Virus genome (UHGV): UHGV-0084588
Direction: 5' to 3' (one strand)
Length of the DNA stretch: 64,000 nt
From: a virus
Below, piece by piece: positions 1 through 54,323 of this stretch (positions within the stretch are counted from its first letter, which is position 1; every line of letters starts with the position of its first letter). The translations under genes were made by a program, and so were the position numbers. Below the pieces are notes generated by a model that was given only the letters and a program-made list of their open reading frames with translations, had not been told where the DNA came from and ran no database searches.

Positions 1-848
1 GCTCTGACCCCCAGCGAGGGGGTGGGGATCGGTGAGCGGTATTTTCCGGAAAAACCGAAATTCGTACCCGGGGTATTTCACCAGGGTAAAATCCCCACCT
101 GGGGGATCGGGTAGGGGTGTACCCGACCGGGGGTAAAACCCCATTCCCCTTTTTCGAACGTTAAAACCCTATGGTATGTTCGGAGGATTTGCGTGGGGTG
201 ATTTACAAATCCGACCACGAAGATTTTTCGGAGTTCAGGAGTTTACTGCTCACAGCTCAAACACGATTTCTGTCTGCGAAGATTCAGCAGAGCTCGAAGC
301 CCCCTGACCGGGTGTTGGTTTGGGGGTTGTTTTTTCGAGTGCATGGAATTTATTTCACCGTGTACTGGGAAAAACAAAACGTTCAGCCTAACACTGGAGT
401 TTGTTTTACTATGGGGTTTGAAAATCGATTTGCGAATCGAATTTACCCCGAGGGATTTTTGGAATCCCCAGAGTTCAGGTGCTCGGTACCGTTCCCCGAC
501 TTACGAGTGTTGGGGAGCCCGCGCTATCAGTGACGCGTGGACCACATGAGAAAATCCGAGTGAACCGTGGCAGCCTCTGGGAGCGACGTTGGCGAAAGGT
601 CCGTAGAACTTACCTGCGGGCAGCCGACGGTGGGATACGCTCCCAGAGGTGCGGCCAGAATGCGAATTACGACGTTGCGTCGAATGACCCTGCTCCAGGT
701 AGCGCTGGCAGTGTGATGTCCTCTAGCTTGACGGCTCGCAAAGACGAGAGGGGTGCGTACTCCCGTTGAGAAACGCCGGTACGCAGCTGAATTATTTTTT
801 ACGGAGTTTCCTGTTGGTGTGACACAAATCACGGCAGGAGATTTTAAT
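1..848. other. GC-rich non-coding region with G/C-tract repeats and a 12-bp inverted repeat (574-585 / 638-649); no convincing CDS
   Basis: Only short ORFs without RBS; repeated units such as gtacccggggta...aaatcccc and gtacccgaccgggggtaaaacccc in 1-170; perfect inverted repeat cctctgggagcg / cgctcccagagg. Confidence 0.4.
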
Positions 849-1166
849 ATGACTTTGAATAATACGTCCAACTTGTATCTGGTGCATTCCTCAGACGGCA
901 AGCGAACCATTCTGGTTCATGCTGAATCGCATCGCGAGGCTGGCGAGCTTTGGGATGGCGACGAACAAGTTACGTTGCAAGTCGATCGACTTCTGGGCGG
1001 TACTTACCAGTTCACAGGCTCTCCGGTAATCTTGGCTGAAGTTGATGGGGCTGTAGCCACTGCTGGTGTTATCAGCACGCAGTTTTTCGTGTATGTCCCT
1101 GACGGGAAAACGCCCACAGCAGACGGCTTATCGCTGCTACAGCAGGCCGATGTAGGAATTCTGTGA
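849..1166 (+). CDS. hypothetical protein (105 aa)
   Basis: ATG at 849 preceded by aggag RBS; stop overlaps start of next gene (TGATG). Confidence 0.5.
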   Translation: MTLNNTSNLYLVHSSDGKRTILVHAESHREAGELWDGDEQVTLQVDRLLGGTYQFTGSPVILAEVDGAVATAGVISTQFFVYVPDGKTPTADGLSLLQQADVGIL

Positions 1167-1666
1167 TGACCACGATTGTTTTTGACGGAAAGACGTTAGC
1201 TTGTGATGGCCAAGTCACCGTGGAAGACCGAAGCGCTGCCACGCAATACCGTAAGATTCACACGCCGCCTGAGGGTACGACGTGGAAGCTTTTGGGTGAA
1301 GACGTGAAAGCGATTGGTTTGGCAGGTGATGTCGCCGCATTGCAATCCGTGCGTCAAGAACTCACGCTTGAACGTTTCGGCGGCATCGAACGGGGTGGGG
1401 TTCGTTTTGAAACGACGTATCCCGAACAGATTGAATTTATCGTACTTGCTGTTTTGACAGACGGGCGTGTTATCGACGCCTCGAAGTGCAAAGACAACAA
1501 ATACGCCAGCTACGTGTTTGTAGAACCGCCGTATGCGATAGGCTCAGGTGCTCACTATGCCCTGGGTGCATTAGGCGCTGGCGTTGACGCCCCCACTGCG
1601 GTGGAAGTGGCGAAACGTTACGACCTGTACAGCGGTGGTCAAACGCAAACACTTAAGCTGTTTTGA
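1166..1666 (+). CDS. HslV-like / proteasome beta-type Ntn-hydrolase peptidase
   Basis: N-terminus M-TTIV...DGQ(V)T matches HslV TTIVSV...GDGQAT; Lys near position 30; AIGSGA motif matches HslV AIGSGG; about 166 aa, similar to HslV length. Confidence 0.7.
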   Translation: MTTIVFDGKTLACDGQVTVEDRSAATQYRKIHTPPEGTTWKLLGEDVKAIGLAGDVAALQSVRQELTLERFGGIERGGVRFETTYPEQIEFIVLAVLTDGRVIDASKCKDNKYASYVFVEPPYAIGSGAHYALGALGAGVDAPTAVEVAKRYDLYSGGQTQTLKLF

Positions 1667-1675
1667 TGTATAAAG

Positions 1676-1748
1676 ACCATTGAAGTTAGAGGAATTAACA
1701 CCCGACTAATAATCGGTTATTTCGCAGGTTCGAATCCTGTCATTGGTC
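1676..1748 (+). tRNA. tRNA-like element (73 nt), anticodon loop cu-AAU-aa, identity uncertain
   Basis: Canonical T-arm gcagg-TTCGAAT-cctgt, 7-bp acceptor stem with one U-U mismatch, D-stem gtta/taac with GG in loop; atypical A8 and weak anticodon stem. Confidence 0.45.
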
Positions 1749-2384
1749 TCCCGAATTAGAGCAGTCGTACAGTGGGTAGATTTTCCCGTCAGCCTTCAAC
1801 TGAGATACGTCTGCTCTGATAACTTCTGCTCTTGCTCACGGGTAGAAAGCTCCTTAAAAACGTGTAAACACCTACCGATTAAGTTCGGACTTACGTTTAG
1901 GGCCGTAGGGTCCTGGTAGCACGACTACCGAAACGGTTGTACGGTGGGAGGATATCCTCCCACCTGCATCCATCAAGAATTTAATTATTGGGTTTTCCCC
2001 TAAGTGTAACGTGAATACCCTGTAATGTGAATTGAGAGTTACGTGTTAACTCGACGGTACCGGTCGTTGATTTTTTAGTAAACCTTCATCGTCCCATGTC
2101 TGCTGCATTTGGCTGGTACTGAACTTTGTCGCTAAGCCTGGTGAGGTGGCTACACACCGAGGCTGGGGCTCGACACCCGTTAGCGGCACCCTTTTTGCGT
2201 TATTGTCAGTATTCTGAAGCTGTGTTCAGTGACAATAGCGTTTTTTATTCGCGTTGGCGTTTGTACCATTGCTGCCACTGCCTGCTGCGCCTCAACAAAC
2301 GGTCAACGCGTCCCACTAACCCACACGTCGGGGTATAGCGACGTACAACAGAACGAGTAGTAGTAACAGAACGAGGTAACAGAA
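1749..2384 (+). other. structured non-coding region with multiple hairpins
   Basis: No ORF with RBS; perfect hairpin ggtgggagg-atat-cctcccacc (1945-1966); tattgtcag...ctgacaata stem (2201-2238). Confidence 0.35.
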
Positions 2385-3032
2385 ATGCTTACAGTAAAAC
2401 GCATCATTAACGGCGACCGTGTCATCACTGTTCACGAACGTGTACGTTTAGGTGACAAAATGTCCCGTGTTTACAAAGAAGCACTTAAAATCGTTAACGG
2501 CGAAGATAATGAATTGTGTTTTGATAACGCGATTGATTTGCCGAGAAAACCGAAACAGGTAGGTTATACAGCTTTAACTGATATGTCCGTAGAGGAACAG
2601 AAAAGCACCTTGGCCAACCTGCATCCGTTTTTGCACAATGTGTCAGATTGGACCGTTGTCATTGGAGGTCGACCTATTCCAGAGGATGTACCACGTGTGG
2701 TGATCGTTAACCCACGTATGCCGTCCTTCGAAGAAAAGAATTCGCCAGTCGACGAAATTTATATTCCTGGCAATAATTTCTATTGCCGGTTTTGTGGCTT
2801 TACACAGCGTGAAATGACGTATGTGATGCCAGCTCAAGAAATCCAATTAGTCCGCGAGCTGATTAACGAAGATGGTGATACCTTCTATCAGAATCAGCTC
2901 CGTAGCGGTAAGCACTCGGTTGACGAGGCGATTGGCGTTTTACTCGTCGACGATGCTTACGAATTTTTCTATCCAGGGGATGTGGTTTACATCATGAACA
3001 ATGAAGGTAAAACCATTGATACCCTGCGATAA
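2385..3032 (+). CDS. hypothetical protein (215 aa)
   Basis: ATG with RBS cgaggtaacagaa; followed by terminator-like hairpins. Confidence 0.6.
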   Translation: MLTVKRIINGDRVITVHERVRLGDKMSRVYKEALKIVNGEDNELCFDNAIDLPRKPKQVGYTALTDMSVEEQKSTLANLHPFLHNVSDWTVVIGGRPIPEDVPRVVIVNPRMPSFEEKNSPVDEIYIPGNNFYCRFCGFTQREMTYVMPAQEIQLVRELINEDGDTFYQNQLRSGKHSVDEAIGVLLVDDAYEFFYPGDVVYIMNNEGKTIDTLR

Positions 3033-13485: not shown

Positions 13486-13528
13486 ACCAACACTACAATT
13501 GTATTAAACCTTATAAGGATTAAGTAAA

Positions 13529-15376
13529 ATGGCTAAAGAGTTTATTGACAATCAAAACGACGTTGTGACTGGTGCTGCTGGTTCTGCTGCAGATCCAATT
13601 CCGTCTTTCGGTGGCGCGGGAGCTGCTACTGTGGATAATACCAATGCGGCCAACGCTTTTGGTGGGATGTCTAAAAACATCTCCACTTTCGATAAAGCTT
13701 TCGGATACATGTCTTTCGTGTCCACTGCTTCTCAGTTCACTAGCCTGATTGAGAAGATGGCGGAGAAGAACACATACCTGCGTAACTTCCGTTGGGGTGT
13801 CATTGACGGCATCAACTCTGAAATGGGTTCTGCTGCATACGTGGCTGGTCCGTCCGGCGATAACCATAACGAATGGCTCTACGGCATCCTGTTCTTTGAA
13901 CATGGCCAGTCCATCCGTTTCTACGAAATCAACGGTAAAGAAAACTACTACACCCTGGCGCAGCTGTTCAGTCAAGAAGGTGTGATGAACAACATCACTA
14001 ACCAGATTGCAACTCAACACAATCTGCCGAGCGTACAGTTCATGGTAATGAACTGCGTACCGGAACTGGGTAAAACCATGAACGAAGAATGGGCTAACCA
14101 GCTCATGGGCCAGATTGCACTGGGTATCTTCGGTCGTCATTCTGGCTACCTGGGCTACCTGAAAATGACCCGTTCTGATCGCTTCACCGCGCAAGTTAGC
14201 GTAGTTGAAGAAGGTTCTGTAACTGACGTTAACGGTTCCGCACAGCGTGCTGACCTGATGGTTGTGGTTGACCATACTCGTACCGGCAACAACGATAATA
14301 ACCCGACGCTGTTCTCTTCTGAACGCCTCCAGAATTATCCGAGCGTTGCAGGTGTTGGTTACATCAACCTCCGCCATAAAGGTAAACCTCAGACTCTGAC
14401 CAACGGTACTCAGGACCTGCGTCAGCTGGAAGCCGAAGTGGTTGTTTCCCTGATGGATTCTCAGTCCTCTGGGGCAATGGCACCTATCGAGCGTCAGCTG
14501 ATTGAACTGGCCGCGTTCGCACAAATCGCCACTATCGGTGGCTGGCGTGAACGTTTCATGCAGTCGCTGAACAAAACCGATCGCCGCTTCTCCCGCGTTC
14601 TGGAGTATGTAGAATGGGGCAGCGAAAAACCTGACCTGAGCAAAATCGACGGTAACCGTGAAGTTATCGAGAAATGCCTGGACACCTTCGCTAACCCGAC
14701 TGCAGCTCTGGTGGTGAACCATCGTGCAGGTAACGGTATCGGTGGTCTGTCTACTCTCCTGAGCGAAATCGGGATGGGTAACACCAACGCACTGTACACC
14801 CTGTTCAACATCCTGGATAACATGGCCAGCAACGGTGCGACTAAGTTCAGCACTCGCTTCAAAGCACTGCTGGGCAATGTCACCAACTTCGAGTGCAAAC
14901 ACGTTGTTATTGCCGGTTGCCCGACCATCTCTGGCCAGTATTTCAGCAACAGCCAGAAACGTAGCTTCCAGGATATGGACTTGGTTTCCGCTCTGACTAA
15001 AGTGGGTGACAACCAACGCGATGCGATCGACTACATCAGTGCACAGTCCTACTCTCACCGCTATCTGAATGCGCGTGACCAGCGTCTGTACCTGCTGAAA
15101 ATGGCTGCGTCCATGTTCGGTAGCAAACAGCCGCAGGTAACGGGTGAAGCGTCTGACCTGGCGATCAATCCGTTGTTTGGTAAGGCACTGGTGGAATACA
15201 TCACCGAAAACTGCAACTTCCAGGTGAACGGTGTTACCGCAGCGAACAGCCTCACTCACTCTGTGTTTGTTAACACGGGTAATGAGAACTTCGCTCTGTC
15301 TGGTAGCGGTCCTAACGCATTTGGTAGCGATTTCGGTATGTCCTTCGCTGCAACTGACTGGCGTCCGACTTTCTAA
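13529..15376 (+). CDS. abundant 615-aa protein; candidate phage nuclear-shell (chimallin-like) protein, alternatively a major capsid protein
   Basis: Strong bias to E. coli-type optimal codons; tandem promoter repeats upstream; strong terminator downstream; lies directly upstream of the RNAP beta-prime N-terminal gene, which from memory matches the phiKZ gp54-gp55 arrangement. Confidence 0.45.
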   Translation: MAKEFIDNQNDVVTGAAGSAADPIPSFGGAGAATVDNTNAANAFGGMSKNISTFDKAFGYMSFVSTASQFTSLIEKMAEKNTYLRNFRWGVIDGINSEMGSAAYVAGPSGDNHNEWLYGILFFEHGQSIRFYEINGKENYYTLAQLFSQEGVMNNITNQIATQHNLPSVQFMVMNCVPELGKTMNEEWANQLMGQIALGIFGRHSGYLGYLKMTRSDRFTAQVSVVEEGSVTDVNGSAQRADLMVVVDHTRTGNNDNNPTLFSSERLQNYPSVAGVGYINLRHKGKPQTLTNGTQDLRQLEAEVVVSLMDSQSSGAMAPIERQLIELAAFAQIATIGGWRERFMQSLNKTDRRFSRVLEYVEWGSEKPDLSKIDGNREVIEKCLDTFANPTAALVVNHRAGNGIGGLSTLLSEIGMGNTNALYTLFNILDNMASNGATKFSTRFKALLGNVTNFECKHVVIAGCPTISGQYFSNSQKRSFQDMDLVSALTKVGDNQRDAIDYISAQSYSHRYLNARDQRLYLLKMAASMFGSKQPQVTGEASDLAINPLFGKALVEYITENCNFQVNGVTAANSLTHSVFVNTGNENFALSGSGPNAFGSDFGMSFAATDWRPTF

Positions 15377-15403
15377 TAAGTTGGTAAGTAGTAAGCAGTA
15401 GTT

Positions 15404-15447
15404 GAGGGACAGGGGAAAACCCCCTGTCCCTTCCCTCTCTTTTTTTG
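15404..15447 (+). terminator. rho-independent terminator
   Basis: hairpin gagggacagggg-aaaa-cccctgtccc followed by T-run. Confidence 0.7.
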
Positions 15448-15460
15448 TTGAGGATTCGGC

Positions 15461-16828
15461 GTGGAACATAAACTAGAATATTACGGGATTTCAGGGCGAC
15501 TAATTAGTCACGATAAAATGCTACGTGACTGTATACAAGAAGCGGAGGAAAAAGGCTACAAACCCCCGATTATTATCAATGACGTTGCTGCAACGATGGA
15601 TACCATCGAAGCGTCAGAGATGATTAACCAAATACTTCAAAACCGAATCGTTGATGAAACACTCAACTCGGCTCCTATTTGCAGTCTGACCTGCGAATCA
15701 CCTATTACCCATCGTTATAATCTTGGGTTACGTTGCCCACATTGTGGTCATGTTGTTTCTGAACATCGGATTACGTCCGAAGTTTGGCTACGTGCACCCG
15801 ATGAGATAGGTAACTTTATCAATCCACGTTTTTGGTCTCTCTTTAATGCTTTCTTTGGCTCTAAGCTGAAAAAATTTAATCGTAACAAAGTGACGGTAGA
15901 GCGTGGTTCTGATTTGCTGCTATGGCTAATCGATCCGTACTACCATCCAGAAAAGGACGAAGGAACACGTGCTCGTGTGGTGAAAAGAATCCTCAGCGAA
16001 CATGGTTTCGAACGGGGAATTCGAAACTTTATCGACCACCATCGAACCGTCTTTAATATCCTTACGTCCCCGGAAGCTTGGAAGGAGATTTATCCACCGA
16101 CGAAAAACAACCGTTATGAGAGTGAACGCGTACGCTTAGAATGGCGTGAGTTCTTTCAGGAACAATCGTTCTCATTCTTTCCAAGACACCTTCCGATTAT
16201 TTCATCGAAACTGATCGTTACAGAGGAGCGCCGACAAGGTATCTTTATCGATCCCGTTTACACCAGTGCCATCGATGCAGTAAAAAATGTGGCGTTGTTG
16301 TACACGAATGCACGTCGTATCGAACCACGATTTATTATTCGTCGCGCGATCAAAGCGAATCGACAACTTGCGTATTTCTATATTGACCATCGTCAGGAAG
16401 TGATGGAAGGTAAACCTGGGTTCTATCGGGCAAAACTCGGGTCAACGCACGTACCGTGGGGCGGACGTGTGACTATCTCTCCTATCTCTGAACCTCACGA
16501 TGCGTTGAAAGTTATTGCGCCTTGGCGTTGGTTAGTTCCGTTGGCGAGTGTTCACATTGAGAACAAGTTAGGTCGACGTGACTACACACCTCGACAGTGT
16601 GAACGAATTATTGCATTCGCGGCAATGCAGTATGTACCGTTGGTACATGAAATTATTAATGAGCTGATTAAAGAATCCCCCGGCGGATTCGGTTTAATGT
16701 TGGAAGTTCTACGTAACCCAACATTGGTTCAGCTTTCTATTCAGACATTGTTTATCTCGGCGGTACTGACAGATGTAACACAATGTTCTCTGCGTATTTC
16801 TGATCGCGTCATCAAAGCACCTAATGCT
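15461..16828 (+). CDS. RNA polymerase beta-prime-like subunit, N-terminal fragment, exon 1
   Basis: Zn-ribbon C-x4-C...C-x2-CG; GKPGFYRAKLG...GGRVTISP matches [41 protein letters not shown] matches NRAPTLHRLGIQAF; ends ...KAPNA where bacterial beta-prime has YNA|DFDGD; GTG start. Confidence 0.75.
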
Positions 16829-33555: not shown

Positions 33556-34128
33556 ATGTCACGTCGTAAAAAGAAACCCGCTTATAACCCACGTGCTCTG
33601 GCGAAGAAAACCCTTCGTGAAAGCGTGAAGAACGTGTATAAACTGGTCATTCTGTTCGAAGACCAAATGAAAATTTTGGCTGAGCGTATCGACAAAGAAC
33701 GCGAGATTCTGGACGCGCTGCAAGAACCAGAATATAAAGAATTTGCCATTAACGCGTTAGATGAAGCGAAAGCGGCTTTCGTGGGTCTGATGGCAGAGGG
33801 GAAAGAAAAGCTGGGTGCCAAATTGATTGCGATCGATGAAGTGGCAACCAAAACCAAAACGATGTTGGAAAGCACGAATTGGTCCAACGTCAAAGAGCAA
33901 TATGAACTGGATACTTTGCTGGTGACTAACCTGGAAACTGATGCGATGTTCCTGGGTAAAGATATCCAGGGTGCCGCGATTGAGATCTTGTCACTGTACA
34001 ATAGTCGCGCCGATTTCGTAAAACGTGCAATGCAGCAAGGTAGCACGTTCGCTGAAGCGTACGAACTTCTACAGCAGGCCGAGCAGGCTGTAAAACAACC
34101 AGACACCGTCGTTGAAGCAGAGGGTTAA
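33556..34128 (+). CDS. hypothetical coiled-coil protein (190 aa), basic N-terminus
   Basis: ATG with aaagga RBS; Lys/Glu/Ala-rich heptad-like sequence. Confidence 0.55.
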   Translation: MSRRKKKPAYNPRALAKKTLRESVKNVYKLVILFEDQMKILAERIDKEREILDALQEPEYKEFAINALDEAKAAFVGLMAEGKEKLGAKLIAIDEVATKTKTMLESTNWSNVKEQYELDTLLVTNLETDAMFLGKDIQGAAIEILSLYNSRADFVKRAMQQGSTFAEAYELLQQAEQAVKQPDTVVEAEG

Positions 34129-34131
34129 TTA

Positions 34132-36090
34132 ATGTCAGATACTTTAGACCAACGCCCAGGCAATGGGCGTCGTCGGGCTCAGGAAGACGCACCTCATGTC
34201 GTCGTGCCCGAGGTTGACTTGTCTACGATGTCCGCCGACGATGGGATTATGGCAATCAAGCGCAGTAATCCCCAATTTTCATTCGCTCAAGCAGAAGAGA
34301 TGTATCACAATCTCGTAAAAGCGAAACCTGCTGAAGAACCCGTTCTACCTAAACCGGTTTATGAAGAAGAACCTGCTCCGGTAGTGACAATTACCGAGCC
34401 TGAACCCGTTGTCGTTGAGCCAGTTATTCAGCAAACTGGTGCTGCCCCTGCCGCACACAAACCTGAGCCTGCGGTAGAAAAGAAAGTCGAAGAACCTTAC
34501 GTTCCTCAGGCGATTGAAGGTTCGCAGATTGCCGCTGATCACGAACCTGAAGCGTCACCGGCAGTGAAAGAACAACCGGCTGAACACCATGTGAATTTCG
34601 GTACGCAAGCACCGCACGAAGAGATCAGTGAATTGCCCGAAGACGACCCAGGTCGGGTTCTGACAGAGTTCAATACACTGATTGGTTTACGTGAAGACCC
34701 TAATCTCATCGGTAGCGAGCTGAAGAAATTCTTTTCCAGCGTTCCGCGTGGTAATGACGGTCGACTCCTGTTTAAATCGGAAGAACAGCGTGACCTGTAC
34801 GAGCGTTTGTATCGTGCATTGAACATGATGCCGCCGCGTTTACAAAACCAACAGCAAGCGTTCGATGGTGCATTGTCTCGTGAAGATACCGCCTGGGAAC
34901 AGCGTGTGCAGTTGCCGGGAATGTCTAAGCCGGTCGGCTTCATTACACCGCGTAACAGCCAGCACACTGGTGCTATTGCGGCACTTCGTCGTCGCCGTAA
35001 ATCAGGTATCCCTAACTGGGTATGGCTACCCGCAACAGGCATCTTTGTAGGTTTCCGTGCACCATTAGAACGCGAAATCTGCGATTTTGATATTCAGCTG
35101 ACCCTGGAAACTGCAAAAATCGGTATGCAGACTTACGGCCTGATGTTATCCGCGTCTTCAGGTATCTATTTAAGCCATATGGTTGAATTTGCGTTACGCT
35201 TCGTCACCGACTGCACGTTGGATTGCGAAGGGAACGACATGAAGACCGTGCTGTTGGATACTATCGATCTTGCGGATTATTGGCTGTTGCTGATTGGCGT
35301 GATGCAAGCGAAATATCCGGGTGGTTTGCCGTGGACGTTAATCTGTGGTCATGAGGGTTGCGGCTATCAGGAAGATATTCGCCTGAACCTGGCCCGTTGT
35401 ATCCGCATGGGTACGTCACTTTACACAGATATGCAGCGTAGCCTGTGGGCCCAGCAGCGTGGTAAAGAAGACGTTACGATCAGTCGTTTGGAACAACGTA
35501 AGTTTGTTGAAGAACATCTGAAAGATCCGTCTGCGACATTCGTAAGCGACGGCATTACCGTTAAATTCGGTCGTTCGACGTTAGGCAAGTTCTTTGACAA
35601 TACGGAACGTTGGGTCGAAGAGAACAACACCGCGTCCACATCTGCGTTGGCTGAGAAAGGTACCGAACGCGAGCGTGAAGATCATCTCCGTCTCATTACC
35701 GAAGCACGTCGCCTAACACGTTATGCGTATATGGTGGAATCCATTACAGTAACTGAAGAAGTTGTGCAGGACGATGAAGTTCGTGAGGTAAGCACCACAG
35801 AAACGGATACCGATAAGATTATCCAGATTCTGGAGGAGCTGTCTTCCGATCGTCATTATGTGTATGAGTTTGAGGCGGCTGCGGCGAACTATAACGAACG
35901 TAGTCGTTTGGCGGTGTTCGGATATATGGGACAGAAATGTCCGTCGTGCGGCAAAACGCATGAAGGCGAGAAAGAAGGCACTTACCGTGGTATCGTGACG
36001 ATCTCACCGGACCGCGTTTTTTTCGAGCTATCTCGAGTGGTGTCCGAGATTCAGCGGTATCTGAGGGATCAATACGCCGTTATTGGCTAG
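34132..36090 (+). CDS. hypothetical protein (652 aa) with Pro/Glu-rich low-complexity N-terminal region and C-terminal CxxC cluster
   Basis: PEPVVVEPV / EEPAPVV repeats; C-terminal CPSCGKTHEG. Confidence 0.55.
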   Translation: MSDTLDQRPGNGRRRAQEDAPHVVVPEVDLSTMSADDGIMAIKRSNPQFSFAQAEEMYHNLVKAKPAEEPVLPKPVYEEEPAPVVTITEPEPVVVEPVIQQTGAAPAAHKPEPAVEKKVEEPYVPQAIEGSQIAADHEPEASPAVKEQPAEHHVNFGTQAPHEEISELPEDDPGRVLTEFNTLIGLREDPNLIGSELKKFFSSVPRGNDGRLLFKSEEQRDLYERLYRALNMMPPRLQNQQQAFDGALSREDTAWEQRVQLPGMSKPVGFITPRNSQHTGAIAALRRRRKSGIPNWVWLPATGIFVGFRAPLEREICDFDIQLTLETAKIGMQTYGLMLSASSGIYLSHMVEFALRFVTDCTLDCEGNDMKTVLLDTIDLADYWLLLIGVMQAKYPGGLPWTLICGHEGCGYQEDIRLNLARCIRMGTSLYTDMQRSLWAQQRGKEDVTISRLEQRKFVEEHLKDPSATFVSDGITVKFGRSTLGKFFDNTERWVEENNTASTSALAEKGTEREREDHLRLITEARRLTRYAYMVESITVTEEVVQDDEVREVSTTETDTDKIIQILEELSSDRHYVYEFEAAAANYNERSRLAVFGYMGQKCPSCGKTHEGEKEGTYRGIVTISPDRVFFELSRVVSEIQRYLRDQYAVIG

Positions 36091-51579: not shown

Positions 51580-51610
51580 GGGGGCCCCTCATTCTAGGGG
51601 CGTGTAATTG

Positions 51611-51622
51611 GGTTATATAACC
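51611..51622. promoter_or_regulatory. perfect 12-bp palindrome GGTTATATAACC (candidate promoter/operator)
   Basis: 17 bp upstream of ATG 51639; AT core TATATAAC resembles the TATATTAC element. Confidence 0.3.
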
Positions 51623-51638
51623 AAAGGAAATAAACGAA

Positions 51639-52910
51639 ATGGCAAATTTCGCAAAAACTCGCGCCGCTCGTGAATCGATGGAAGCGGCCGATGAAGTAAT
51701 CGACGGTATCAGCAACGTTGAACCGGCAGAAGAGAACCTGGACGTCCAACTTGCGGACGTTGCATCTATCGACGGTCAGCTCGATCAGCTGGAAACCGAC
51801 GGTGAAACCCTGGCTGCCGATACCGAGCGTACTGAAGACGCTATCGAACAGGCGGAAGAAGCCGTTGCTAACGGTGAAGAAATGCCGGAAGAAGCGGTTG
51901 CCCTGCACGAAGTGGCACAGGAATCCATCGCACGTCGTTGGTGCCTGGAACGTACTAAACTGGCTCGCGAATCCTATCGTCGTGGTCGTGGTATGACTGC
52001 TGCTGCCCAGGAAGGTTGGAAAGAAACCCTGAAAGATCTTTACGATCGTTTCATTCAGTTCTGTAAAGAAGTGATTGCGAAGATCAAAGACCTGAAACTG
52101 AAATATTTCAACGTCGGTAAGACTGCACAGAAACGTGCGAAGAAATATCAGGAAATGCTGCGTAAGCTGGGCAAACAGAAGAAAGATGAGATCTCCGGTG
52201 GCTTTATCACCAAGCTGTCCATCGAAGGTAAATTCGATGCTGCTGGCTCCATCGCTATTGCGAAAGAAGTTACCGCTGGTAAAGCTAAAGGTTCCATCAG
52301 TGTTCTGGAAAAACAAGCTGGCGAAGCTGTAACTGCTGTTGCCAAAGGTGACGATGACGCATTCAAAGCGATGCGTGGCGATCAGCCGGTAGAACTGTTT
52401 GGTAAAGCTGCGTCTAAACTGCGCTCTCTGCCGAACTTTGAAAAAGGTGATGCGTCTAAACTGCTGGCTCTGCCGGGTAACGCATACGTCCAGGCTGGTA
52501 CTAAAGAACTGGCTGGCGGCCACAAGTTCACCGCAATTGCATTCATGAGCACTGGCGACGCTTCTGACGATAAAGACGTGAAAACTCCGTCTGTTTCTGA
52601 AATGGCTGGTGCTGCTTCTGCTCTGGAAGCGATCGGTAAAGGCTTCGAAGCTGTACTGAAAGATTTCCGTGCTTATGACGCCGAAATCGTGAAGCTGCAA
52701 CAGGCTGCTGAGAAAGCTGCTAACGCGCTGAACAACGAAAAAGACGAAAGCAAATGGGATGGCCTGCGTAACGCACGTCAAGCTGCTGATTGGTCTGTTA
52801 AGAACTACCAGACCCTGAACCGCGCCGTTAGCTATGTTGCTAACACCGTTATTAGCGGTCTGAACGGCTACCTGGGTGCTGGTATCGGTGCTTACGAAAA
52901 GTCTAAATAA
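51639..52910 (+). CDS. abundant acidic protein, paralog A (423 aa); function unknown
   Basis: Strongly optimised codons; shares N-terminus MANF..ARESME, internal RKLGKQKKDEISGGFI and C-terminus GLNGYLGAGIGAYEKSK with 52993. Confidence 0.65.
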   Translation: MANFAKTRAARESMEAADEVIDGISNVEPAEENLDVQLADVASIDGQLDQLETDGETLAADTERTEDAIEQAEEAVANGEEMPEEAVALHEVAQESIARRWCLERTKLARESYRRGRGMTAAAQEGWKETLKDLYDRFIQFCKEVIAKIKDLKLKYFNVGKTAQKRAKKYQEMLRKLGKQKKDEISGGFITKLSIEGKFDAAGSIAIAKEVTAGKAKGSISVLEKQAGEAVTAVAKGDDDAFKAMRGDQPVELFGKAASKLRSLPNFEKGDASKLLALPGNAYVQAGTKELAGGHKFTAIAFMSTGDASDDKDVKTPSVSEMAGAASALEAIGKGFEAVLKDFRAYDAEIVKLQQAAEKAANALNNEKDESKWDGLRNARQAADWSVKNYQTLNRAVSYVANTVISGLNGYLGAGIGAYEKSK

Positions 52911-52992
52911 TAATTTAGATTCGTAGTTCCGTACAGTTCTTGAAATAAATCATCAGGGGAACAACGCGTTCCCCTTAGAGGAAAAGCTTAAA

Positions 52993-54258
52993 ATGGCGAA
53001 TTTCTACAAAAACAAAATTGCTCGTGAGTCTATGGAGTCTACCGCTACTGTAGTTCCAGACGGCATCGAACTGCCAGCAGAATCCGTAGAAGGTACTCTG
53101 GCCGATATCGAGCATGACACCAAACCGATCGAAGCCCTGGACGCTGACGCTGAACTGCTGGCAGAAGACGGCGACGAAACTGACGCTCAGCTGGATGTTC
53201 TGGATGAAGCTCAGGCCGCTGCTGACGGTGAAGGTGCTGGCGAAGACGGCGAAGACCCGATGGACGCCGAAGAAGATATGCCGGACGACGCTGCGACCGC
53301 GCTGGACGTTGCTCAGGAATCTATCCGTTCTCGTTGGAACTTCGAACACCGTTCTTCTGTTGCTCACGAATCTTACGGTTCTCGTAACCGTCGCCAGGTG
53401 GCTCGTGAATCCCTGTGGGAAGACATTAAAGCCTTCCTGGGCCGTATTCTCGATTGGCTGAAAGAACAAGGCCGTAAACTGAAAGATCGCTGGCTGAAAT
53501 TCCACAACCAGGGTAAATCTATCCAGGCGCGTGCTAAGAAATACGATGAAGTTATTCGTAAGCTGGGCAAACAGAAGAAAGATGAGATCTCTGGTGGCTT
53601 CATCAAGTCTCTGTCTATCGATGGCAAGTTCGTCGGTGATAATATTCCGAAACTGAAAGGTATCCTTAACCAGGTTTCCACATTCTATAGCGCTAAGATG
53701 CCTGCCATGGCCTCTAAAGCTGCTGAAGTGGTTTCCGATGTTACCAAAGGTAACGGTGTTAAAGTTGAAAAACTGAAAGCCGACTTTACCGAACTGTCCA
53801 AACAAGACAGTCTCCAAAACTTCAAACTCGGTAACATGGCAGTGAAAACCGAGTATGACAACGAAGGCGGCTTCAGCTCCACTTTTGTTGAAGCTGAAAA
53901 TAGCGTTGAAACTAGCGTGAAAACTCCGTCTGTTGGCGAACTGGCTAAAATCAATGCTCTCTTCAACGAAGTGGGTAAACAGATCGAGAAGAACGTTCAG
54001 GATTATCGTAAAGTCGAAAGCGCGCGGAAAACTTTTGAAGATAATATCGATAAGCTCCTGAAAGAAGTCGATAAAGTTAAGATCGACGAAAAACCGGAAC
54101 TGACCGAAGGTGTACGTGCTGCCCGTCGTTTCATCACCAGCGTTAACCAGGGCCTGTCTCTGGGTGAGAAGGTTATTGCTTCTACTCAGAAACACCTGGC
54201 CGGTGGTCTGAACGGCTACCTGAGTGCTGGTATCGGCGCTTACGAAAAATCTAAATAA
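52993..54258 (+). CDS. abundant acidic protein, paralog B (421 aa); function unknown
   Basis: Same conserved blocks as paralog A; acidic D/E-rich N-terminal region. Confidence 0.65.
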   Translation: MANFYKNKIARESMESTATVVPDGIELPAESVEGTLADIEHDTKPIEALDADAELLAEDGDETDAQLDVLDEAQAAADGEGAGEDGEDPMDAEEDMPDDAATALDVAQESIRSRWNFEHRSSVAHESYGSRNRRQVARESLWEDIKAFLGRILDWLKEQGRKLKDRWLKFHNQGKSIQARAKKYDEVIRKLGKQKKDEISGGFIKSLSIDGKFVGDNIPKLKGILNQVSTFYSAKMPAMASKAAEVVSDVTKGNGVKVEKLKADFTELSKQDSLQNFKLGNMAVKTEYDNEGGFSSTFVEAENSVETSVKTPSVGELAKINALFNEVGKQIEKNVQDYRKVESARKTFEDNIDKLLKEVDKVKIDEKPELTEGVRAARRFITSVNQGLSLGEKVIASTQKHLAGGLNGYLSAGIGAYEKSK

Positions 54259-54275
54259 TCTCTGATTGTTTAGTA

Positions 54276-54323
54276 AGAGAACCACCCTGTAATGGGGTGG
54301 TTCTCTCTTTTCTTTTTTTTTTC
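54276..54323 (+). terminator. rho-independent terminator
   Basis: hairpin gagaaccaccc-tgtaat-ggggtggttctc followed by a long T-run. Confidence 0.75.

Follow-up and report, generated by a model that had tools for sequence, protein, structure and literature searches.

A candidate large structured RNA conserved among SPN3US-like nucleus-forming jumbo phages

We analyzed a stretch of 64,000 nucleotides (the window) from a jumbo phage, a relative of Salmonella phage SPN3US, and found that positions 296-792 very probably hold a conserved structured RNA element on the + strand. Comparison with related phages points to a gene for a previously undescribed large RNA that, among nucleus-forming jumbo phages, would be restricted to the SPN3US-like clade. 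Its multi-helix architecture (P1-P6, P8, and P9) is kept by compensatory substitutions across genera, as the alignments show, and the RNA may begin as early as approximately position 178. The transcript itself, its start site, and its 3′ end are predictions from the DNA sequence. The original prediction had treated the first 848 positions as one GC-rich, repeat-containing region that could be a structured non-coding RNA, a replication or packaging cis-element, or a genome terminus. Instead, the region comprises at least two objects, the structured RNA stretch and a separate G/C-tract DNA feature at 1-160. The first of the three proposals is strongly supported for 296-792, where conservation, compensatory changes, strand asymmetry, and the lack of a coding signal all speak for an RNA. 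The features are listed in Table 1.

The unusual composition of the region was as first described. Its GC content is 0.527, compared with a window mean of 0.458, and only 1.1% of the 848-nt segments of the 64 kb reach this value; by part, it is 0.588 at 1-160, 0.452 at 161-295, 0.545 at 296-792, and 0.375 at 793-848. The repeated G-tracts and C-tracts are equally real, with 19 G or C runs of at least four nucleotides against 2.4 per 848 nt elsewhere, the top value among all 848-nt segments; 10 of the 19 fall in 1-160. The perfect 12-bp inverted repeat that had been noticed (CCTCTGGGAGCG at 574-585 and CGCTCCCAGAGG at 638-649, separated by 52 nt) is helix P4a of the large RNA; no other perfect 12-mer inverted repeat of the 64 kb has more than 7 nt between its arms.

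Table 1 Features of positions 1-848 of the window
Feature	Position	Strand	Basis or remark
G/C-tract hairpins and two GGGGATCGG boxes	1-160; boxes 24-32, 102-110		Repeat family; G/C runs
Conserved non-coding stretch 5′ of P1	161-295	+	Divergence 1.5% from L004, 6.7% from L008
TATGTTCGG motif, TATG	175-178	+	TATGTTC(G/T/A)G recurs in other lineages
Hairpin P1a, then GCUCG	273-277 / 287-291	+	P1a-like hairpin and GCUCC before P1 in SPN3US, Asesino
Conserved large structured RNA	296-792	+	Homologs of 400-536 nt, 16 genomes; folding compared with shuffles
RNA element order	296-792	+	P1, P2, CCUAACAC box, expansion hairpins, P3, P4 domain, P5, P6, core and P8, P9, GCUGAA
P1, GC-rich hairpin	299-327 (GCCCCC 299-304 / GGGGGU 322-327)	+	Hairpin predicted there in 16/16, arm sequences unrelated
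P2, long hairpin, 5′ arm is the U-run	328-346 / 358-376	+	Inverted repeat; RNAalifold
UUCAGC, possible 5′ strand of closing helix P0	382-387	+	Pairs with GCUGAA 786-791 in MFE
Single-stranded box CCUAACAC	387-394	+	Kept in 13/16 lineages
Expansion hairpins, lineage-specific	413-469	+	Block alignment; MFE
UUCAGGU, conserved	474-480	+	Block 474-566
P3	GGUGCUCGG 478-486 / CCGAGU-GA-ACC 556-566	+	Closes variable insert, 0-2 hairpins
P4	UGGC 568-571 / GCCA 654-657	+	RNAalifold
P4a	574-585 / 638-649	+	RNAalifold
P4b	587-593 / 623-629	+	In P4 domain 568-657
P4c	599-606 / 614-621	+	Capped by conserved loop AACUUAC 607-613
P5	CGACG 670-674 / CGUCG 678-682	+	RNAalifold
P6, loop with GUAG	690-698 / 705-711	+	RNAalifold
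GUGAU box	711-718	+	In most other lineages GGAGGUGAUCC, complement of 16S rRNA 3′ end
Near-invariant 27-nt core CUUGaCGGCUCG-loop-GACGAGAGGGG	727-753	+	16-sequence alignment
P8, within core	CUCG 735-738 / CGAG 745-748	+	100% paired, never varies
P9	Lower stem 754-761 / 778-785; internal loop; upper stem 764-767 / 772-775	+	Covariation
GNRA tetraloop of P9, GAGA	768-771	+	Caps P9
Invariant GCUGAA	786-791	+	Directly after P9
U-run	792-800	+	Directly after GCUGAA
Promoter-like motif TTTACG-N13-TGTG	798-803, 817-820	+	Comparison with relatives
Shine-Dalgarno GGAG	837-840	+	Before ATG at 849

The strand on which 296-792 folds best points to an RNA. The + strand has a minimum free energy (MFE) of -209.2 kcal/mol (z -4.87, with none of 100 shuffles as good), and the - strand one of -163.8 kcal/mol (z -2.27). 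The covarying helices hold numerous G-U cells, which become A-C mismatches on the opposite strand and therefore make a poor DNA hairpin. The long-range helices, the many G-U pairs, and the strand asymmetry of 45 kcal/mol thus indicate an RNA and do not favor a replication or packaging cis-element at 296-792. The same observations make it very unlikely that the whole 848 bp acts at the DNA level as an origin, a pac site, or a physical end whose repeats serve as DNA hairpins or protein sites. An AT-rich, GATC-dense block does precede the region in relatives, GGATCGG-type boxes follow this block in all lineages, and many database records begin or end here. However, record starts vary by depositor and are not mapped termini, and the element is found at many internal coordinates. 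As for a genome terminus, the relatives L004 and L236 run on continuously across the window start, directly after the AT block; the start has the look of a limit set by assembly or by the record, and not of a physical end that has been mapped.

Positions 1-160 appear to be a separate DNA-level element at the edge of this origin-like block, and for these positions a replication or packaging role is a reasonable idea. They continue the AT-rich, GATC-dense sequence found just 5′ of the window start in relatives, where the block is 150-210 bp long, contains A/T-only runs of 51-119 bp, and is flanked by alternating purine-pyrimidine GC tracts. GATC occurs there 13 times in 600 bp, approximately 20 per kb compared with a background of approximately 3 per kb (about 7-fold), and the GGATCGG-type boxes were seen after the block in SPN3US, Huxley, L012, and L029. 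Among close relatives, 1-160 is the least conserved part of the region, with 8% substitutions and 23-27 indel columns relative to L004 and L008. The AT/GATC block next to the RNA is a candidate origin.

The RNA occurs in approximately 60 GenBank records of the genera Seoulvirus, Machinavirus, Erskinevirus, and Wellingtonvirus, and in several IMG/VR contigs. In the matched records, it is always unannotated or overlapped solely by “hypothetical protein” calls. These relatives were found solely by blastn with short words, the 3′ domain matching 35-61 phage records, and a megablast search of positions 1-1200 against phages gave no match. Conservation in related genomes, whose absence would have refuted the original prediction, is evident from the full-length homologs (400-536 nt) recovered from 16 representative genomes of the four genera and the IMG/VR contigs. 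All 16 lie in the same gene-free gap of 1.2-1.7 kb and on the strand of the flanking genes; in SPN3US, the element occupies 597-1132 and its invariant core 1067-1094. Downstream of the gap come a small gene that varies, an HslV-like gene, and tRNA genes. In the window, SPN3US, SPAsTU, pEa29, and pEa9, the tRNA genes are co-oriented with the element at a distance of 0.9-1.3 kb; L012 has about ten tRNA genes, starting approximately 2.2 kb 3′ of the element. When a covariance model of the 3′ domain was run on the window and on 77 loci encoding HslV-like proteins in other phages, the matches were confined to the same clade, with a single copy in the window (713-791, 90.5 bits). Among the at least 120 matches listed in a metagenome pattern scan, all were chance matches after filtering. 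The pattern scan of genome contigs gave one match, a window-like phage contig binned as a Bacillota metagenome-assembled genome, and no bacterial homolog.

Folding and covariation in related phages, which had been suggested as a check, revealed a conserved architecture with compensatory substitutions across genera. In P9, 9 of 12 pairs are compensatory, 97.9% of the cells are paired (32-48% when the partner strand is slid), and the covariation score was reached by none of 500 shuffles. RNAalifold predicted 12 pairs in P4 and P4a, eight of them compensatory (the first pair is UA/CG and the fourth CG/UA), and L008 carries the compensatory changes A582G and U641C in P4a. By inspection, the P4c stem also covaries (CCGUAG/CUGCGG, CCAUGG/CCGUGG, GCCGGUG/CACUGGC). 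Compensatory changes were further seen in 8 of the 15 pairs predicted by RNAalifold for P2, including the three basal pairs flanking the U-run and the A-run, and in 5 of the 16 predicted for P5 and P6 from 13 sequences; P5 and P6 are missing or replaced in L012 and the Wellington-like lineages. P3 is present in the individual MFE structures of all 16 sequences, with at least six different complementary arm pairs. P8 and the proposed P0 never covary; the P0 complementarity is conserved with no compensatory change and is missing in the L012/Wellington group. About nine independent lineages underlie these counts, which limits the power of the covariation analysis, the energy that RNAalifold credits to covariation is low (-0.2 to -2.6 kcal/mol), and some helices rest on anchored block alignments cut by hand.

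Other parts of the structure are lineage-specific. The expansion hairpins, preceded by UUUUACUAUG with TATG at 410-413, were found in the window and in the SPN3US and Erskinevirus lineages; Machinavirus and Wellington-like lineages have none. A possible pseudoknot, in which the AACUUACC loop would pair with the GGAGGUGA box, is predicted at -12.5 to -13.4 kcal/mol in five lineages, with at most 3% of shuffles as good, and is weak or absent in the Machinavirus lineages. At the other extreme is the 3′ core, of which alignment columns 15-41 are invariant in the 16 sequences, except for column 19 and the P8 loop, whose length differs by 1-2 nt between lineages. As an RNA with this core is kept across at least four genera while the neighboring proteins are only 32-40% identical, the RNA must be under strong selection and probably does something central.

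We consider it barely conceivable that the region codes for protein, as annotated in some relatives (HUXLEY_278, ASESINO_288/289, and small CDSs in phiEaH2 and SPFM8). Open reading frames of 96-127 aa can be called mechanically (171-533 and 479-769 on the + strand, 527-910 on the - strand), and some depositors have annotated hypothetical proteins over the element. However, these frames had no Pfam match above threshold and show no third-position bias. Compared with a close relative, the substitutions in 296-792 are distributed 21/17/18 by phase, whereas 14 of 16 and 24 of 26 substitutions in the adjacent HslV-like gene are at third positions. In addition, indels between lineages are not multiples of three and break the frame, the annotated frames vary in position and extent among genomes, and the core is invariant at all three codon positions even where the neighboring protein has diverged. 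These results agree with the absence of a credible coding sequence reported at the outset. Relative to L004, the element (296-792) differs by 1.2% and the HslV gene by 5.2%. A short reading frame within the core, starting at a conserved UUG, was also considered and was ruled out by the 1-2-nt loop indels and the lack of synonymous variation.

The flanks of the element carry signals that could be read as promoters and terminators. Positions 161-295 may belong to the RNA as its 5′ part or else serve as its promoter region; in phiKZ, the late promoter is TATG, with G as the start site (PMC5312081). P1 stands directly before the U-run that opens P2, which gives it the look of an intrinsic terminator, and such a GC-rich hairpin with a U-run (299-337 in the window) is present in 16/16 sequences. 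A simple terminator scan did not list it, as its loop exceeds the limit of the scan, and the scan for sigma-70 promoters and terminators gave nothing convincing. The region could accordingly be seen as a string of short transcription units, with real terminators of the P1/U-run type and two or more small RNAs. Indeed, a hairpin followed by TTTTTCGA is found at 129-158 and 299-337 and repeatedly in SPN3US, Caitlin, and L029, TATG-type motifs lie in between (175-178 and 410-413), and the terminator-shaped P1 and U-run could end an upstream transcript. We nevertheless judge this arrangement unlikely. The U-run is also the covarying 5′ arm of P2: together with the three bases that precede it, it pairs and covaries with the downstream A-run, so transcripts must read through P1. 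Moreover, UUCAGC at 382-387 is complementary to the 3′-terminal GCUGAA, and the internal TATG motif is lacking in the Machinavirus and Wellington-like lineages. CTAACAC, for its part, is not enriched in the window and is therefore not a general promoter motif.

On the 3′ side, the U-run after GCUGAA is found in some lineages and not in others. A motif of the TTTACG/TGTG type also precedes the first gene in SPN3US, Asesino, L012, L009, Caitlin, and L025; it is missing in Huxley, pEa10, pEa9, pEa4, SPAsTU, and pEa29, where GCUGAA abuts the ribosome-binding site of the next gene. TTACR-N14-TRTG has 8 matches in the window compared with 2.55 expected, a number reached by 2 of 100 shuffles, and this enrichment is too weak for a genome-wide promoter.

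The position of the element also raises the possibility, which we regard as the lesser likelihood, that it is a cis-acting 5′ leader, either riboswitch-like or a translational operator, controlling the operon just downstream. A distance of 26-57 nt always separates the end of the element from the next start codon, and its near-invariant core lies in internal loops, like that of an aptamer. In most lineages, the Shine-Dalgarno-like GGAGGUGAUCC is half-sequestered in a hairpin, P7. Six lineages have neither a terminator nor a promoter between the RNA and the next ribosome-binding site, an arrangement that fits a stand-alone RNA equally. However, the gene to be controlled is not conserved, and different lineages, even close relatives, carry unrelated genes at this place: it encodes a phrog_20200 protein in Huxley and another protein in SPAsTU, is the HslV gene itself in SPN3US, and was assigned to no family in the window. 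The U-run and the promoter-like motif intervene in the window, SPN3US, Erskinevirus, Wellington-like, and several other lineages. At 400-536 nt, the element is far above the size of known riboswitches, and neither an expression platform covarying with the aptamer nor an alternative pairing was found.

Some genomes interrupt the RNA. In Kwan, Wellington, and L007/L016, an HNH gene (phrog_1492, E 1e-29) inside the element parts the middle domain from the 3′ domain, as might be expected if the element were a group I intron or another mobile ribozyme. This is hardly credible, because the RNA is common to these phages and to their close relatives L009, L015, and L017, which lack the HNH gene; only the endonuclease cassette is mobile. 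There are no flanking exons, no open reading frame or RNA gene is split by the element, and the locus of the element is the same in every genome. No Rfam intron (Intron_gpI) matched at E<=10 in any of ten genomes, the HNH-carrying Kwan among them. Taken with a natural deletion of P4a-P6 in Erwinia phage pEa_SNUABM_6, the HNH insertion in Kwan and Wellington indicates that the middle of the RNA is dispensable or tolerant.

Weighing these readings, we favor a stable, probably processed, trans-acting RNA or RNP component, analogous to the large phage-borne RNAs GOLLD and ROOL, and we give an even chance to the RNA standing alone and acting in trans. In the mechanism that we propose, a phage RNA polymerase would use a promoter situated immediately 3′ of the AT-rich block, and the RNA would form the 5′ end of the left-most transcription unit, followed by the small gene, the HslV-like peptidase gene, and the tRNA genes. 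The invariant 3′ core would then bind a protein, the ribosome, or a ligand, acting at the RNA level and not as a switch for one particular gene. A more speculative proposal, to which we lend limited credence, is that the RNA belongs to a novel class of large ornate RNAs confined to nucleus-forming jumbo phages, and that it is active in its own right instead of being a passive leader. In one version, it could be directed at the ribosome and capture or tune 30S subunits early in infection. The GGAGGUGAUCC of most lineages is a perfect complement of the 16S rRNA 3′ tail, and in the Seoulvirus and Erskinevirus lineages the P4c loop is ACCUCC-rich and complementary to GGAGGUGAUCC. In another version, it could be an RNA-only multimeric scaffold or a ribozyme built around the invariant CUUGGCGGCUCG...GACGAGAGGGG core.

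From a biological perspective, phages of the SPN3US type serve as models of nucleus-forming jumbo phages and are candidate agents for therapy and biocontrol (Salmonella, E. coli, and Erwinia amylovora), and their non-coding content is essentially unannotated. The RNA corrects spurious “hypothetical protein” annotations in several GenBank records. Large structured RNAs of unassigned function are rare, and several have proved structurally unprecedented. As this one sits in genetically tractable phage-host systems, its function is directly testable. In phiKZ, antisense oligomers have been used for knockdown (PMC12571901).

Finally, the RNA appears to match no catalogued family. With Rfam 15, the only match in positions 1-3000 of the window at E<=1 was a tRNA (1676-1748) and nothing fell on the element; at E<=10, eight other lineages gave only the downstream tRNAs and sub-threshold noise outside the element, and Kwan gave nothing on it. 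We found no description of the element in the literature on SPN3US and jumbo-phage non-coding RNAs and on new large RNAs. It resembles riboswitches and structured leaders in lying directly 5′ of an open reading frame and in having variable helices around a highly conserved core of loops and junctions, but it is 3-5 times the size of a typical aptamer, its downstream gene is not conserved, and a promoter-like motif intervenes in many lineages. The known system closest to the packaging idea of the original prediction is the phi29 pRNA (RF00044), a structured phage RNA that is transcribed early and, like the element, is encoded beside the conventional left end of the genome map; however, the pRNA is approximately 174 nt long and belongs to the protein-primed phi29-like phages, and the element has no Rfam match and nothing that ties it to a packaging motor. 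The tRNA cluster of T4 encodes the stable RNAs species 1 and 2 (rnaC/rnaD), of approximately 120-140 nt and unassigned function. They too are phage-encoded structured non-coding RNAs co-located and co-oriented with tRNA genes, but the present RNA is 400-536 nt long, and one or two protein genes lie between it and the tRNAs. GOLLD (RF01998) and ROOL (RF03087), which gave no match at E<=10, typically adjoin tRNA genes. The element is, like them, phage-borne and near tRNA genes (0.9-1.3 kb downstream); GOLLD and ROOL likewise span several hundred nucleotides, have many covarying helices and no assigned function, and are carried by phages or prophages. According to a cryo-EM report (PMC12286853), GOLLD, ROOL, and OLE form homo-oligomeric RNA-only complexes. 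Unlike GOLLD and ROOL, which come from Firmicutes, rumen, or lake sequences, the RNA described here is smaller (400-536 nt) and is carried by enterobacterial jumbo phages.

The main object at the start of the window is a large structured RNA that is strongly conserved in SPN3US-like jumbo phages and previously undescribed; its structure is well supported. Megablast with window 1-1200 as the query gave no match. With short words, blastn matched window 724-805 at 79-87% identity to 35 phage records, those of Salmonella phage SPN3US and its relatives and of Erwinia phages Kwan and Wellington, in which the matched stretch is almost never annotated. A second blastn query, drawn from an IMG/VR relative, gave 61 records covering Seoulvirus, Machinavirus, Erskinevirus, and Wellingtonvirus. 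Because of these relatives and of its first genes (the first real gene, an HslV-family peptidase gene, and a tRNA; see table), the window represents the "left end" of the genome in a jumbo phage of the SPN3US type. Homologous regions were taken from SPN3US, Proteus phage 7, and Kwan, from IMG/VR contigs picked up by patterns of the core sequence, and from 11 further GenBank phages. The element is kept in these relatives, its conserved blocks spanning 400-536 nt, far beyond the blast match. It always lies within a 1.2-1.7-kb gene-free gap, on the same strand as the flanking genes, and is followed 3′ by zero to two small genes and then by the HslV-like gene and tRNA genes. P1, P2, P3, P4/P4a, the core with P8, and P9 are universal among the lineages.

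Features of the window start and conserved blocks of the RNA element, in order
Feature	Position	Description
Conserved block 1		GC-rich hairpin, then UUUUUCGAG
Conserved block 2		box (G)CCUAACAC
Conserved block 3		UUCAGGU
Conserved block 4		ACCG(U/C)GG(C/U)AGC
Conserved block 5		AACUUAC as hairpin loop
Conserved block 6		GAAUUCGGCGUUGCGUCGA
Conserved block 7		GUGAUCC
Conserved block 8		CUUGGCGGCUCG-loop-GACGAGAGGGG, almost invariant
Conserved block 9		long hairpin capped by GAGA, GUGA, GCGA, or GGGA
Conserved block 10		GCUGAA, last of the ordered blocks
First real gene	849-1166	without family
HslV-family peptidase gene	1163-1666	phrog_1040, E 5e-36
tRNA	1675-1751	
A/T block	L004 7950-8148; L236 2830-3080; L001 (SPN3US) 60-260	

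The original prediction had described window 1-848 as a GC-rich, repeat-containing non-coding region. These observations held, and the interpretation offered for them was right in part. GC content is 0.527 compared with 0.458 for the window (top 1.1% of 848-nt windows), 19 G or C runs of at least 4 occur where 2.4 are expected per 848 nt, and none of the ORFs has family support. The perfect 12-bp inverted repeat that it noted (574-585/638-649, 52 nt between arms), the sole long-spacer perfect 12-mer inverted repeat in the 64 kb, is helix P4a, within which the close relative L008 has A582G paired with U641C. Structure prediction and covariation in related phages, proposed as a check, revealed compensatory changes in P2, P4/P4a, P5/P6, and P9, and the suggestion of a structured noncoding RNA stands, with a covarying RNA as the main object. 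In a 16-sequence alignment of the 3′ domain, the P9 and P8 pairs were formed in 97.9% of cells, versus 32-48% when the partner strand was slid by 1-3 columns. P9 has both-side changes in 9/12 pairs and a covariation score reached by 0/500 shuffles; P8 is paired in every sequence of this alignment, yet invariant. From the MAFFT block alignment, RNAalifold predicted 15 pairs in P2 (8/15 compensatory), and it also predicted 12 in P4 and P4a (8/12; for example, UGGC/GCCA, UGGU/ACCA, and CGGU/ACCG) and 16 in P5 and P6 (5/16). P1 and P3 appear in the individual minimum-energy folds of 16/16 sequences, with unrelated arm sequences. The + strand of the window element folds at -209.2 kcal/mol (z -4.87; 0/100 shuffles as good), the - strand at -163.8 kcal/mol (z -2.27). 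Because of this strand asymmetry and of the many G-U cells in the covarying helices, the data speak for a + strand RNA and against DNA hairpins.

A protein-coding reading of the element was ruled out. In comparisons with close relatives, changes in the HslV gene are almost confined to third codon positions (24/26 and 14/16); those in the element (296-792) are spread 21/17/18 over the phases. Divergence from the close relative L004 is 1.2% for the element versus 5.2% for the HslV gene, and no core position differs among phages that share 32-40% identity in their HslV proteins. The P8 loop varies by 1-2 nt in length among lineages, and a Pfam search of the ORFs over the element gave no match above threshold. 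"Hypothetical protein" CDSs nevertheless overlie it in Huxley, Asesino, phiEaH2, and some SPFM records (KX397368, HUXLEY_278; KX397364, ASESINO_288/289; JX316028; LR535906/LR535917/LR535913). Given the covariation and the absent coding signal, these are probably spurious mis-annotations.

Natural variants interrupt or shorten the RNA. Kwan, Wellington, and two IMG/VR contigs carry an HNH endonuclease gene between the middle and 3′ domains. It is missing from the close relatives L009, L015, and L017, so the endonuclease cassette alone is mobile. The Kwan cassette occupies 1875-2469, inside the RNA element, and its 5′ untranslated part has a near-threshold match to the int-alpA RNA motif (Rfam 31 bits, gathering threshold 35.8, E 0.001). 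In Erwinia phage pEa_SNUABM_6 (~1470-1500), P4a-P6 have been deleted, seemingly through recombination of two AGCCCC repeats; P1-P3 and P7-P9 are kept, so that the 5′ and 3′ domains are intact. The L012 and Wellington-like lineages lack P5 and P6 or have replaced them, and two expansion hairpins (window 413-469) are absent from Machinavirus.

Window 1-160 contains the majority of the G/C runs, together with two GGGGATCGG boxes; it is less conserved among close relatives than any other part and is a separate thing from the RNA element. As to a genome terminus, also offered in the original prediction, the relatives L004 and L236 have continuous sequence before window position 1, reading CGCGCGCGATCCTTATTATGAGATCTGATCTC. 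Upstream of CGCGCGCGATCCTTATTATGAGATCTGATCTC lies a conserved block of 150-210 bp, 170-210 bp in L004 and L236, which consists almost entirely of A and T and contains CCTTTAGG palindromes; GC tracts of alternating purines and pyrimidines (ACGCGTGTGCGCACGCACACGT / CGCGCGCG) border it on either side. GATC occurs 13 times in the 600 bp around it, ~7-fold the local background, and the first 260 bp of SPN3US have the same A/T and GATC arrangement. This region looks like a candidate origin or early control/early-promoter region. The window starts exactly at the downstream edge of the A/T block, and this start is most simply an assembly or record break rather than a demonstrated terminus.

Downstream, the first real gene is swapped for unrelated sequence (57% mismatches) in L004 and L008, relatives otherwise 95-99% identical, which makes this a gene-replacement hot spot directly beside the conserved RNA. 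The tRNA, which ARAGORN calls tRNA-Ile with the unusual anticodon AAT, scores 38 bits (Rfam tRNA) versus 64-71 bits for tRNA-Trp at the same position in relatives, and may be diverged or non-standard. A second gene-free stretch of ~630 nt after it (1752-2384) folds at -214.4 kcal/mol (z -4.0) and, by eye, differs compensatorily from L004 (GGGCC..GGUCC vs GGGUC..GACCC; GGUAG..CUACC vs GGUGG..CCACC). It had no Rfam match and no blastn match among GenBank phages, and may be another structured RNA. Elsewhere, long ORFs share coordinates on both strands at 13520-15469, 33556-36090, and 51594-54285, the first two in locally GC-rich 1-kb bins (0.52).

Judging from ends inferred from the sequence, the RNA could be a leader, a processed product, or a stand-alone species. 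In six lineages, GCUGAA is followed at once by the ribosome-binding site of the next gene; in the remaining lineages, a U-run and a promoter-like motif lie between it and the next gene. The gene 3′ of the RNA differs even among close relatives, which argues against a gene-specific switch. At the 5′ side, P1 and its U-run resemble a terminator, but a functional transcript would have to read through them, because the U-run and the bases next to it form the 5′ arm of P2, which covaries. A TTTACA-N14-T(A/G)TG motif lies upstream of the first gene in several lineages (window 798-820, with a spacer shorter by one base), ~22 nt upstream of P1 in Huxley, and also upstream of the RNA in SPN3US, Asesino, and Caitlin. 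In phiKZ, the late promoter reads TATG, and transcription starts at G (PMC5312081). A related promoter-like pattern is weakly enriched in the window (8 matches versus 2.55 expected).

Judged by its GNRA loop and by the loop and junction nucleotides that never vary, the RNA may pack into a tertiary structure and have a core for binding or catalysis. Directly upstream of the core, most lineages have GGAGGUGAUCC or a near variant (the window has GUGAU only), which is exactly complementary to the 3′ end of 16S rRNA and is partly hidden by pairing in hairpin P7. The P4c loop AACUUACCUCC is able to pair with this motif in the Seoulvirus and Erskinevirus lineages (predicted -12.5 to -13.4 kcal/mol, equaled by no more than 3% of shuffles), and does so weakly or not at all in Machinavirus.

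The family seems confined to this clade in the collections searched. In ten genomes, no Rfam 15 family matched the element. Searched with a covariance model built from the 3′ domain, the window gave a single copy (713-791, 90.5 bits), and 77 other loci, all encoding HslV-like proteins in other phages, gave nothing beyond clade members. Pattern scans, which demand an exact core match and so possibly missed divergent relatives, gave only chance matches among those listed for metagenomes and, in 185,579 species-representative genomes, one contig, a window-like phage within a Bacillota MAG. This contig, L236 (JAEWFE010000254.1), is 13.7 kb long, was deposited within a "Bacillota bacterium" MAG, and is closely related to this enterobacterial-type jumbo phage; its 3′ domain scores 90.5 bits, equal to the window copy, and its placement is probably a binning error. 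In the literature on noncoding RNAs of SPN3US and jumbo phages and on new large RNAs, we found no description of the element. With phage-host systems already established, this large RNA is directly testable.
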